This document shows, one piece after another, positions 46,668 through 53,025 of a DNA stretch of 64,000 nucleotides. The position numbers and the translations under genes were made by a program. Source of the stretch: Escherichia coli (GTDB lineage Bacteria > Pseudomonadota > Gammaproteobacteria > Enterobacterales > Enterobacteriaceae); assembly GCF_044324785.1 (NCBI RefSeq), contig NZ_CP172127.1. One strand, given 5' to 3'. Under the pieces are notes generated by a model that saw only the letters and a program-made list of their open reading frames with translations, was not told where the DNA came from and made no database searches. The stretch's first letter is position 1, and every line of letters begins with the position of its first letter.

Positions 46668-47786
46668 CTACCAGGCCGGGATCATAACCAACAAAACGTA
46701 TCCCACCAGCGCCGCCCACAACAGCATCGGTATTGAATAGAGATGGAAACGCCACCAGATACGGCGATCGTTCGCCATCCGTAACGCAATCAAATTTGCC
46801 AGCGATCCGGGTAATAAACCAAAGCCACCTACGTTAACCGCCCATGCCAGCAGCAACGACGGCGGCACATAATTGAGCAGCAAAATGGTACTCGGCACGT
46901 TACTGATCACCTGCGATAAACCGATTGCCGTTAACCATAACCCGGGTTCAGATAAATGACTCACGTTACCCAACACACCTTGCAACGCTGGAAGCTGGGT
47001 CAGTAAATGGACGTCGATAAACATCGCCATAAACACCAGCAGCAGCGTCCAGTCCACACTCAACACCACGCGACGTGCCAGCAGCGCAAAGCCCGCCGCC
47101 ACAATCACCAGTCCCCACAGCTCTTGTTTTAACTCCAGCGCCGTCAGAAAGACGATATACAGCCCCAGACAACTCCACACCAGCCGCGGTTTCCACTCCG
47201 GAGTTTGCACCCCCGTATGGTATTGGAGTGCCTTTCCAGGGAAACAACACCAGCACAGGAGCAGGAGCGTCAGCATCATTGCGCCAGCCAGTGGTGCCAT
47301 TTGGGCAATAAATCCGGCAAACGAAAGACCAGAACGTCCCCAGATAAGAATATTTTGCGGGTTGCCAATTGGCGTCAGTAGCGAACCAGCGTTGACTGCC
47401 AGCGCCTCAAAAATAATCAGCCGATTAACCGGGATCTCACACAGTCTTTTGAGCGTGATAGTCAGCGGAACAACTATAAACAGCGCGACATCGTTGGTCA
47501 GAAAGGTAGAAAGCAGCGCCGCCGCCAGCACCATAAACATCGCCAGCCGACGCTCCGTAGCAAAGCGGCGCACCATTTTGCGCCCCAGCACATCAAAATA
47601 ACCGCTTAGCTCCACACCTTTAGTCAGCAGCATCAGGCCGCTTAAGGTGATGATGGTGTGCCAGTCGATAGCAGCAGGCCAGGATTTCGGTGCAAAGGGA
47701 ACAAAAAAACTTAATCCGATGCCAACAAGAATTAATAACTGAAAAAAACGATCGCCTTGCAGCGTGCGTAAAAAAGGCAGGCTCAT
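46668..47786 (-). CDS. ybiR: YbiR, putative inner-membrane anion transporter (ArsB/NhaD-type), 372 aa
   Basis: Hydrophobic 372-aa ORF; start overlaps the mntR stop (operon mntR-ybiR). Confidence 0.85.
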
Positions 47787-48250
47787 TTGGCACCGTGTTT
47801 CTGGGTAAACAAACGAAAGGCATCCAGCGTCTCTTCACTAACATGGTGCTCCATGCCTTCCGCGTCGCGACGGGCGATTTCCGGACTGACGCCCAACACC
47901 AACAAGAAATTTTCGACTATCTGATGTCGCTCGCGGCTTTCCTGCGCCAGTTTCTCTCCTTCTGCCGTTAAAAACACGCCACGCCAGGGGATCATTTCAA
48001 TCAGCCCCATGGTTGCCAGCCGCTTAAGCATTTTCGCCACCGTCGGTTGCGAAACCCCCAGACGAGCAGCCATGTCCACCTGACGAGCTTCCCCCACTTC
48101 CCTGATCAAGTCAGAAATCAGCTCAACGTAATCATCAATAAGCTCGCGCCGATGCGCCTCTCTGACCTGGCGGAACCCTTCAACGTGCTCTTCCACGTTC
48201 ACTAACTGCGTCACTTTTTTTGCTGTTGGCGTACCTGCGCGACGACTCAT
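47783..48250 (-). CDS. mntR: Manganese-responsive transcriptional regulator MntR (DtxR family), 155 aa
   Basis: [71 protein letters not shown]... matches MntR. Confidence 0.9.
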
Positions 48251-48338
48251 TGTGCTTCCTCATTATGGTGACGCATACCTAGCGTTCTCATTTCGTGCGC
48301 ACATTGTAAACCAGAGTTGCGAAGGTACAAAAAATTAA

Positions 48339-48382
48339 CGTTTTAGCAATAGCTATATAATATAGCCTGTGCTATATCTGTA
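48339..48382. promoter_or_regulatory. Putative MntR operator(s) in the mntS promoter (tagcaatagctata / atatagcctgtgctatat)
   Basis: AT-rich imperfect palindromes with GC(A/T)...AGC cores upstream of mntS; mntS is an established MntR-repressed gene. Confidence 0.5.
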
Positions 48383-48435
48383 TGTAATGCAATCATCCCT
48401 CAAGGATCGACGGGATTAGCAAGTCAGGAGGTCTT

Positions 48436-48564
48436 ATGAATGAGTTCAAGAGGTGTATGCGCGTGTTTAGTCATTCTCCCTTTAAAGTACGGTTAATGCT
48501 GCTCTCTATGTTGTGCGATATGGTCAACAACAAACCGCAGCAAGATAAACCTTCCGATAAATAG
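48436..48564 (+). CDS. mntS: Small protein MntS (42 aa), encoded within the RybA sRNA locus
   Basis: Translation MNEFKRCMRVFSHSPFKVRLMLLSMLCDMVNNKPQQDKPSDK; RBS aggagg at 48425-48430; divergent from mntR as in K-12. Confidence 0.85.
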   Translation: MNEFKRCMRVFSHSPFKVRLMLLSMLCDMVNNKPQQDKPSDK

Positions 48565-48835
48565 CGGCGTCGCGGTACGCCGCTTCACTCCTGCTTTTAT
48601 GCAGGCACAACGCGTTTTGGTCTGAAAAACCCCACTTTTTGTCGGATTTGCAATCCCCTTCGCAAAAGATTTGTTCGTCAGTAGTTGACCTGAACGGCGG
48701 CTCGCTCTATCTTCTTGCAGCCCTGCGTATATTGCGGCTCGCGGATGCGGACCCCTTTCCCCTCTTCACGCACTCTTGCAGGTATTGACCCTTGACGCCA
48801 GGGTAAGCACATGGCGTTTGTTACGATAGTGGCAT

Positions 48836-50419
48836 ATGAATTTAACCCTCAAAGAATCGCTTGTTACCCGTAGCCGGGTATTTAGCCCGTGGACTGCGTT
48901 CTACTTTTTACAGTCGCTATTAATTAACCTCGGCTTAGGTTATCCCTTCAGTTTGCTCTACACCGCTGCGTTTACGGCTATTTTGCTTTTGCTATGGCGA
49001 ACATTGCCTCGCGTACAAAAAGTTCTGGTCGGTGTCAGTTCGCTGGTGGCGGCTTGTTATTTCCCTTTTGCTCAGGCCTACGGCGCGCCTAATTTCAATA
49101 CATTGCTGGCATTGCACTCCACCAATATGGAAGAGTCGACCGAAATCCTGACGATTTTTCCGTGGTACAGCTACCTGGTCGGCTTATTTATTTTTGCGCT
49201 CGGCGTAATAGCAATCAGGCGAAAAAAAGAGAATGAAAAAGCGCGCTGGAATACCTTCGACAGCCTGTGTCTGGTATTCAGTGTGGCGACATTTTTTGTT
49301 GCTCCCGTGCAAAACCTGGCCTGGGGCGGCGTATTTAAACTGAAAGATACTGGCTATCCGGTATTTCGTTTTGCTAAGGATGTCATCGTCAATAATAACG
49401 AGGTGATTGAAGAGCAAGAACGGATGGCAAAACTGTCCGGAATGAAAGATACCTGGACGGTCACTGCCGTTAAGCCGAAATATCAGACTTATGTGGTGGT
49501 GATCGGTGAAAGCGCGCGTCGCGATGCCCTCGGTGCCTTTGGCGGTCACTGGGACAATACCCCGTTTGCCAGCAGCGTTAACGGTTTGATATTTGCTGAC
49601 TACATTGCCGCCAGTGGCTCCACGCAGAAATCGCTTGGCTTAACGCTCAATCGCGTAGTCGATGGCAAACCACAGTTTCAGGATAACTTTGTCACCCTGG
49701 CAAATCGCGCGGGCTTCCAGACCTGGTGGTTTTCCAACCAGGGCCAAATCGGCGAATACGATACCGCCATCGCCAGCATCGCCAAACGTGCAGATGAAGT
49801 GTACTTCCTGAAAGAAGGTAATTTTGAAGCAGATAAAAACACGAAAGACGAAGCGTTACTGGATATGACCGCTCAAGTGCTGGCACAAGAGCACTCGCAA
49901 CCGCGGCTGATTGTTCTACATCTGATGGGCTCACATCCGCAGGCCTGCGACCGGACACAAGGCAAATACGAAACCTTTGTGCAATCGAAAGAAACGTCGT
50001 GCTATCTCTATACCATGACGCAAACGGACGATTTACTGCGCAAGCTGTACGATCAGTTACGCAACAGCGGCAGCAGCTTCTCGCTGGTTTACTTTTCTGA
50101 CCACGGTCTGGCTTTTAAAGAGCGCGGCAAAGACGTGCAATACCTTGCCCATGATGATAAGTATCAGCAAAATTTCCAGGTGCCTTTTATGGTCATTTCG
50201 AGCGACGATAAAGCGCATCGGGTGATTAAAGCCCGCCGCTCAGCCAATGACTTCTTAGGTTTTTTCTCCCAGTGGACGGGAATTAAAGCGAAGGAAATTA
50301 ACATCAAATACCCGTTTATATCTGAGAAGAAAGCCGGGCCGATATACATCACCAACTTCCAGTTACAGAAGGTAGATTACAACCATCTCGGAACCGATAT
50401 TTTCGACCCGAAACCTTAA
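48836..50419 (+). CDS. opgE: Phosphoethanolamine transferase OpgE (YbiP), 527 aa
   Basis: N-terminal TM segments plus C-terminal sulfatase-like domain; length and position match OpgE. Confidence 0.85.
   Translation: MNLTLKESLVTRSRVFSPWTAFYFLQSLLINLGLGYPFSLLYTAAFTAILLLLWRTLPRVQKVLVGVSSLVAACYFPFAQAYGAPNFNTLLALHSTNMEESTEILTIFPWYSYLVGLFIFALGVIAIRRKKENEKARWNTFDSLCLVFSVATFFVAPVQNLAWGGVFKLKDTGYPVFRFAKDVIVNNNEVIEEQERMAKLSGMKDTWTVTAVKPKYQTYVVVIGESARRDALGAFGGHWDNTPFASSVNGLIFADYIAASGSTQKSLGLTLNRVVDGKPQFQDNFVTLANRAGFQTWWFSNQGQIGEYDTAIASIAKRADEVYFLKEGNFEADKNTKDEALLDMTAQVLAQEHSQPRLIVLHLMGSHPQACDRTQGKYETFVQSKETSCYLYTMTQTDDLLRKLYDQLRNSGSSFSLVYFSDHGLAFKERGKDVQYLAHDDKYQQNFQVPFMVISSDDKAHRVIKARRSANDFLGFFSQWTGIKAKEINIKYPFISEKKAGPIYITNFQLQKVDYNHLGTDIFDPKP

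Positions 50420-52377: not shown

Positions 52378-53025
<648 letters not shown>

Follow-up and report, generated by a model that had tools for sequence, protein, structure and literature searches.

The mntS/RybA locus between mntR and opgE in Escherichia coli, with a putative promoter and leader for opgE

Results

Gene order at the mntS locus

The window analysed here, a stretch of 64,000 nucleotides, is Escherichia coli chromosome: many complete E. coli genomes match the 701 bases around mntS with 100% identity, and the mntS locus was found in 5421 of 5426 such genomes. The gene encoding the manganese-sensing DtxR-family repressor MntR lies on the minus strand (47783..48250; ORF, NCBIfam, Pfam and RefSeq), and its product matches NCBIfam NF008273 with 269 bits (cutoff 153) together with the Pfam domains Fe_dep_repress and Fe_dep_repr_C. 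The 42-codon mntS ORF is located on the plus strand (48436..48564), 185 bp from mntR and divergent from it, as an earlier sequence-only reading of the region had described; ybiR lies beyond mntR. Downstream of mntS is opgE (ybiP; 48836..50419, plus strand; ORF, RefSeq and Pfam), which codes for a phosphoethanolamine transferase (PMC3818809).

The sequence-only reading had suggested an alignment with K-12 mntS/rybA, and this confirmed the identification: the ORF is identical to K-12 b4705, and a region of ~600 bp is 99% identical to MG1655, with four SNPs and zero indels. All of the SNPs fall outside the ORF and the operators (one at 48280, three in the mntS-opgE spacer). RefSeq annotates mntR, mntS, opgE and rybA at the K-12 locus. 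None of the tests made here contradicted the identification, and the feature is almost certainly mntS of E. coli, carried by the RybA RNA.

The mntS ORF is maintained across Enterobacteriaceae

The mntS coding sequence (42 amino acids, ATG start) is supported by the ORF list, RefSeq, NCBIfam, identity to K-12 and conservation, and its translation is exactly the one previously quoted. It is preceded by the Shine-Dalgarno sequence AGGAGGT (48426..48432, plus strand), called perfect in the sequence-only reading, which ends 3 nt before the ATG (4 nt for the AGGAGG core); AGGAGG is kept in 34 of 36 aligned species. The protein matches the NCBIfam equivalog NF033226 (small_MntS) with 96 bits against a cutoff of 36. 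A Pfam scan of the 42-residue protein gave no match in the copy of Pfam used, despite PF26599 being precomputed on all of the MntS relatives listed. A profile search recovered 246 relatives; the best 120 of these are 41-75 amino acids long and all carry PF26599, and every named protein among these 120 is MntS.

To examine the locus in other species, 80 species-level Enterobacteriaceae loci were collected, anchored on MntR rather than MntS because circularity was to be avoided. The order mntR-mntS-opgE and an intact ORF of 41-44 codons were found in 77 of the 80 loci, which is 77 of 77 readable ones, two of the remaining three being cut at contig ends and one carrying an insertion of phage-like genes. 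Disruption of the frame, named beforehand as an outcome that would speak against the gene, was therefore absent. Nucleotide conservation at codon positions 1, 2 and 3 was 0.87, 0.94 and 0.71, respectively, with third positions least conserved, and an alignment of 28 distinct MntS orthologues contained 16 invariant columns (core MNEFKRC..VF.HSPF.VRL.L), the N-terminal 27 residues being almost invariant and the tail free to vary. Judged from these comparisons, the ORF is kept as a coding sequence beyond what chance would give. Across the 77 species the ORF, the Shine-Dalgarno sequence, the operators and the terminator hairpin are all near-invariant.

The suggestion that automated ORF callers often miss mntS no longer holds for RefSeq, as 50 of the 50 RefSeq annotations among the records listed carry the gene. 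Several database proteins of 87-112 amino acids (P0121, P0147 and P0134) begin like MntS and continue into spacer or other sequence; these seem to be variants with a frameshift or a deletion, or else ORFs that were called wrongly.

Two adjacent MntR boxes overlap the mntS promoter

Upstream of mntS are two adjacent inverted repeats, 19 bp apart. Box 1 (TTTTAGC-AATA-GCTATAT, 48341..48358) is an imperfect repeat with a core at 48343-48356 that carries one mismatch, and box 2 (ATATAGC-CTGT-GCTATAT, 48360..48377) is a perfect 7+7 inverted repeat with an exact core at 48362-48375. The sequence ATAGC-N4-GCTAT, the core of the MntR box at mntH, was then tested. It occurs exactly at the K-12 mntH promoter, and exact copies are rare in the window (two found, 0.07 expected; five found and 1.35 expected if one mismatch is allowed). 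One of the two is box 2. The other (ATAGCCGGTGCTAT, 52459-52472) covers a TATACT hexamer 50 bp before the start codon of dps (52522) and provides a positive control for the motif from within the window. Its position fits the reported control of dps by MntR: the title of Yamamoto 2011, cited in PMC10003395, names dps as an MntR target.

Conservation of the boxes was then assessed in an alignment of 36 sequences whose members are <90% identical to each other. Box 1 is nearly invariant in these diverged species, and box 2 is identical in 34 of the 36, the other two having CTAT instead of CTGT in the spacer. The operator block has a mean identity of 0.92, and the segment 48335-48392 is near-invariant while its flanks drift. 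These results uphold the assignment of the AT-rich palindromes to MntR, with a core common to the mntH and dps promoters and near-invariant across genera; loss of conservation, raised in advance as evidence against it, was not seen.

The -10 hexamer of the mntS/rybA promoter, TATAAT (48356..48361, plus strand), lies 7 nt before 48369, where the RybA 5′ end is annotated. A promoter scan found no good -35 element for it, and in place of one there is a conserved A-tract (ACAAAAAATTAACG). Boxes 1 and 2 together span the hexamer and the annotated 5′ end, with box 2 overlapping the latter, a statement about position alone and not about function. Repression of mntS by MntR-Mn has been reported (PMC4361602, PMC9315381). 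Taken together, motif identity, conservation and these secondary citations support the view that boxes 1 and 2 are MntR operators.

Folding places a hairpin in the 5′-UTR of the mntS mRNA (48395..48416, plus strand). By eye, a CCC/GGG pairing in E. coli is replaced by CTC/GAG in Kluyvera-type sequences, which appears to be a compensatory change.

Insertions at the operator

The mntS operator (window 48356-48366) also serves as a prophage integration site with the shared core TATAATATAGC, the corresponding segments in the comparative set being L084 2380-2600, L085 and L013 2600-3010. Given the position of this core, integration leaves box 1 on one side and box 2 with the -10 hexamer on the other. 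In E. coli PSJ-16 a degraded P2-family prophage of 3.9 kb is located between mntR and mntS, containing an integrase fragment, tail and head-completion fragments and a serine acetyltransferase, and in Citrobacter sp. R56 phage-like genes are found at the same junction. About 30 of the 5421 E. coli genomes show a split match at the operator. The reconstructed attP pattern was absent from the viral_contigs collection, and the phages collection returned only ~80% identical integrase fragments of P2-family phages. In Leclercia adecarboxylata (L038 2650-2900), an insert of ~250 bp inside box 1 distances the mntS promoter from the A-tract and the mntR side. By eye, this insert resembles an ERIC/IRU repeat.

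The RybA transcript and its terminator hairpin

RybA is annotated in K-12 (b4416; 852725..853064) as an RNA of 340 nt, which maps without indels to 48369..48708 on the plus strand, with the K-12 5′ end 853064 at window position 48369. Northern analysis detected seven RybA species of 205 to about 400 nt sharing a common 5′ end (PMC4361602). Term-seq 3′ ends have been reported at K-12 positions 852845, 852816 and 852973 (PMC7815308, supplement 1), and the mapping of these coordinates was checked against sequences printed in a table of that paper. The dominant forms are 48369-48588 (220 nt) and 48369-48617 (249 nt), seen in minimal medium and in LB, respectively, and they end 24 and 53 nt past the mntS stop codon. 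The annotated 3′ end, 48708, which none of the dominant Term-seq ends matches, is the first base of a putative opgE -10 hexamer.

A terminator-type hairpin (AGCGGCGT-CGCGGT-ACGCCGCT; 48563..48584, plus strand) overlaps the mntS stop codon. It is GC-rich, with an 8-bp stem and a 6-nt loop (dG -13.8 kcal/mol), and the Term-seq end at 48588 lies 4 nt downstream of it. Its mean identity across 77 sequences is 0.955, loop included. A T-run (TTCATTTTTCTGTC) follows the stem in 62 of 74 species and is lost in all five Escherichia sequences (window 48585-48598 compared with L007-L082). In E. coli the stem is followed by TTCACTCC, with three T in eight positions, and a terminator scan of it found none. 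A second hairpin (CCTGC-TTTTAT-GCAGG, then GCGTTTT; 48590..48617, plus strand) is weakly conserved (0.41) and coincides at its end with the LB Term-seq 3′ end at 48617. Decay of the U-tract in Escherichia would lead to read-through and so to the RybA ladder of 205 to about 400 nt, and it plausibly accounts for the longer species.

The terminator hairpin, its 6-nt loop included, is nearly invariant in many genera (GCGGCG-TCGCGGTA-CGCCGC, as in other genera), which exceeds what a terminator needs. RybA has been reported to be bound by ProQ and RhsFI (PMC7618764), and contact with a protein is a possible reason for the invariance. The predicted folding of RybA as a whole is not unusual relative to shuffled sequence (z = -0.47). 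The Rfam search proposed earlier gave no match at E <= 1 over 47000-50000, which says little, as Rfam apparently has no RybA model. A manganese riboswitch of the yybP-ykoY type was considered as well and rejected, there being no Rfam match to it at E <= 1.

A putative promoter and leader upstream of opgE

The spacer between mntS and opgE (48565-48835) is 271 bp long, in agreement with the ~270 bp given in the sequence-only reading. That reading also called it GC-rich, which holds only mildly: at 53.9% GC, compared with 51.1% for the window, the spacer is hardly GC-rich, and 59% is reached only in 48700-48799. The statement that it has no obvious ORF likewise stands in part, as ORFs of 20-49 codons exist and none is conserved. 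A conserved second small ORF was rejected on account of stops and frame changes in other genera. As for the idea that the spacer belongs to the 3′ region of RybA, the K-12 annotation does place the first 144 of the 271 nt inside RybA, whereas the distal half better fits opgE.

Conservation varies along the spacer, the stretch 48585-48633 being the least conserved (0.41). Further downstream is an inverted repeat, TTTGC-N10-GCAAA (48647..48666; identity 0.74), present as GTTTTG...CAAAAC in most genera; the putative opgE transcription start follows ~65 bp downstream. The innermost pair of this repeat is not kept from genus to genus, and this speaks for a site in DNA rather than a stem in RNA; we know of no transcription-factor motif that fits it.

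A scan of the spacer returned a single good promoter match on the plus strand, TTGACC-17-TATCTT (48685..48713), which we regard as a putative opgE promoter. It leaves a conservation footprint, with identities of 0.974 for the -35 element, 0.536 for the spacer between the elements and 0.994 for the -10 element. The SMRT-Cappable-seq supplements contained no match for an opgE transcription start.

The sequence between this promoter and opgE would form a leader of about 116 nt (48720..48835, plus strand; assigned by conservation), with an identity of 0.76 overall and 0.89 over 48787-48820. It includes a C-rich, G-poor tract (48752-48777; 14 C, 1 G) followed by two overlapping plus-strand hairpins predicted from folding and pairing: hairpin A (48788-92/48800-04) and hairpin B (48794-800/48812-18), the latter followed by TTTGTT. 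Each is paired in 97% of cells. Covariation is modest, most pairs being invariant and one outer pair varying (AU:25, CG:7), and the fold of the leader is not unusual (z = +0.82). An upstream ATG at 48811 (CACATGGCGTTT) is conserved in 35 of 36 species, and in most genera the ORF that it opens is 3-5 codons long (MAF..) and stops immediately upstream of the opgE ATG. Two species have this ORF continuing in frame into opgE, and in E. coli a 1-nt insertion lengthens it to 20 codons, overlapping the opgE start. This ORF is not in the supplement of the ribosome-profiling study of Stringer 2021.

A Rho termination region has been reported at K-12 852560 (Rho score 6.19, p = 5e-42; PMC7815308, supplement 2, where the meaning of the columns was confirmed by recomputing the ratio). 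This position corresponds to window 48873, 37 nt into opgE. The Rho-terminated transcripts near the opgE start could come from either promoter. In the literature searched we found no description of the opgE leader or of opgE regulation.

MntS function and its link to SitA

MntS is known from previous work. Its gene is transcribed at low manganese, and the protein is conserved and expressed (PMC4361602, PMC9315381). The overproduction phenotype was ascribed to the MntS protein, not to the RNA, and is Hfq-independent (PMC4361602). MntS binds and inhibits MntP and self-associates with manganese, and it shares homology with a subset of the signal peptides of SitA, from one of which it derives (bioRxiv 10.1101/2023.06.02.543501). 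In the present analysis, a single-pass profile search against 1.84 billion protein representatives returned a SitA-type match (E = 8.7e-4) with the signal peptide FSHSPFRLRLMLVGM; this similarity weakly reproduces the SitA link. A role for the RNA itself has also been put forward, namely the reported repression of aroF and aroL by RybA (Gerstle 2012, cited in PMC11878033 and PMC4361602).

Discussion

The mntS/RybA gene, its control by MntR and its action on MntP have already been published, and this is an ordinary locus. With mntS annotated by RefSeq in essentially every E. coli genome, the scientific weight of mntS/RybA itself is very little. The modest by-product of the analysis is a clearer map of the mntS-opgE spacer than was available before, in which the proximal part would be the end of the mntS transcript, the distal half most likely is not RybA, and the same distal half looks like a promoter of opgE's own followed by a Rho-sensitive, C-rich leader.

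Another way to read the spacer is that all 271 bp are the 3′ part of RybA, that its conserved blocks serve a regulatory RNA through base-pairing or protein binding, and that opgE is read through from the mntS promoter. This would account for the K-12 rybA annotation running 144 nt past the stop codon, for Northern species of up to about 400 nt that share the mntS 5′ end (PMC4361602) and for the binding of RybA by ProQ and RhsFI (PMC7618764), and an Escherichia terminator lacking its U-tract would permit it. The dominant Term-seq ends, however, lie only 24 and 53 nt past the stop codon, and conservation in the region is lowest (0.41) over the 50 nt that follow the hairpin. Moreover, the distal blocks are conserved even though 62 of 74 species have a T-run after the stem, and the contrast between the -35 and -10 elements and the sequence separating them is the pattern of a promoter. 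We consider it unlikely that the whole spacer is RybA. It is far less likely still that the distal blocks are relics of a sitA coding sequence lost after the signal peptide. The derivation of MntS from such a peptide invites the idea, and translated spacers weakly match the mature SitA N-terminus (for example FTDLQSPSQNIC against FTVIQDIAQNV), but the best E-values were 0.06-2 in a 35-kb search space (tblastn, 78 spacers), in many genera the frame is interrupted by stops and shifted against that of mntS, and the stretch of DNA that gives the matches is the one holding the inverted repeat and the -35 hexamer. With non-significant matches and a frame broken in many genera, a sitA relic in the spacer was rejected.

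Two further alternatives concern the transcript and its operators. RybA might act mainly as a non-coding regulator (repression of aroF and aroL, peroxide stress), with the ORF secondary, as would agree with Gerstle 2012, in the form cited in PMC11878033 and PMC4361602, and with a terminal hairpin that is invariant including its loop and a reported association with ProQ. Against this, the ORF is under protein-level constraint, the overexpression phenotype was ascribed to the protein and is Hfq-independent (PMC4361602), and MntS binds MntP (bioRxiv 10.1101/2023.06.02.543501), which together leave a mainly regulatory RNA improbable; RybA may nonetheless have a dual function, with a second role at the RNA level beside the MntS protein. 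The palindromes, being AT-rich, might instead be generic promoter sequence or sites for another regulator such as Fur. We give this almost no credence, as the exact core, of which only 0.07 copies are expected per window, recurs at mntH and dps, which are other MntR targets, and is nearly invariant while its flanks drift, and as the palindromes adjoin mntR itself.

The preferred reading, in which MntR controls an mRNA for MntS and opgE has a promoter of its own, suggests the following scheme. Two adjacent MntR operators would overlap a sigma-70 promoter that has TATAAT at 48356-61 and its start at 48369, so that with plentiful manganese MntR-Mn would occupy the operators and shut the promoter. 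When manganese is scarce, an mRNA of 220-250 nt would be made, and its strong Shine-Dalgarno sequence would direct synthesis of the 42-residue MntS. The transcript would end at the conserved stem-loop overlapping the stop codon; in Escherichia, decay of the U-tract after the stem would be the cause of the longer read-through species. Rho would terminate near the opgE start, within the C-rich leader of that gene. The ORF, the Shine-Dalgarno sequence, the operators and the hairpins in this scheme, their conservation and the K-12 mapping come from the sequence analysed here. Repression by MntR, expression of MntS, inhibition of MntP, the 3′ ends and Rho sensitivity are taken from the literature. 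From both we infer the assignment of promoter and leader to opgE and the effect of U-tract decay, the latter offering, as a change within the genus, an explanation for the many RybA lengths in E. coli.

A bolder and more tentative possibility is that the distal 150 bp form an undescribed, genus-spanning opgE unit, consisting of the inverted repeat, the promoter, and a leader with mutually exclusive hairpins and an upstream ORF, that decides Rho loading and termination. In such a unit the hairpins and the upstream ORF would gate the loading of Rho on the C-rich tract and hence termination at the opgE start. If this reading of the leader is true, it provides a testable candidate for the control of opgE.

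Comparison with known systems

The locus corresponds to K-12 mntS (b4705) and rybA (b4416), with an identical ORF, the same neighbours mntR and opgE, and the same operators and hairpin. The mntH and dps promoters likewise carry the inverted-repeat core ATAGC-N4-GCTAT over the promoter; the difference is that mntS has two adjacent boxes 19 bp apart, whereas mntH and dps each have one exact core in the stretches examined. MntS shares with the MntS-like SitA signal peptides their length and the motif FSHSPF-x-(L/V)RLML. It is less hydrophobic than they are and lacks both an AXA cleavage site and a mature domain. SitA is the periplasmic subunit of the SitABCD manganese importer, and no significant sitA remnant follows MntS.

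As a transcript, RybA resembles dual-function RNAs of the SgrS/SgrT type, being a short RNA that was first called an sRNA and carries a translated small ORF. It differs from them in being Hfq-independent, and in the literature searched we found no base-pairing target site defined for it. Finally, the opgE leader can be likened, and only likened, to the Rho-dependent 5′-leader attenuators of mgtA, corA and mdtJI (PMC7815308), a comparison that takes up the putative opgE promoter deduced from its conservation footprint. The likeness of this putative unit to the attenuators would lie in a C-rich, G-poor tract, a short upstream ORF and bicyclomycin-sensitive termination at the start of the gene.
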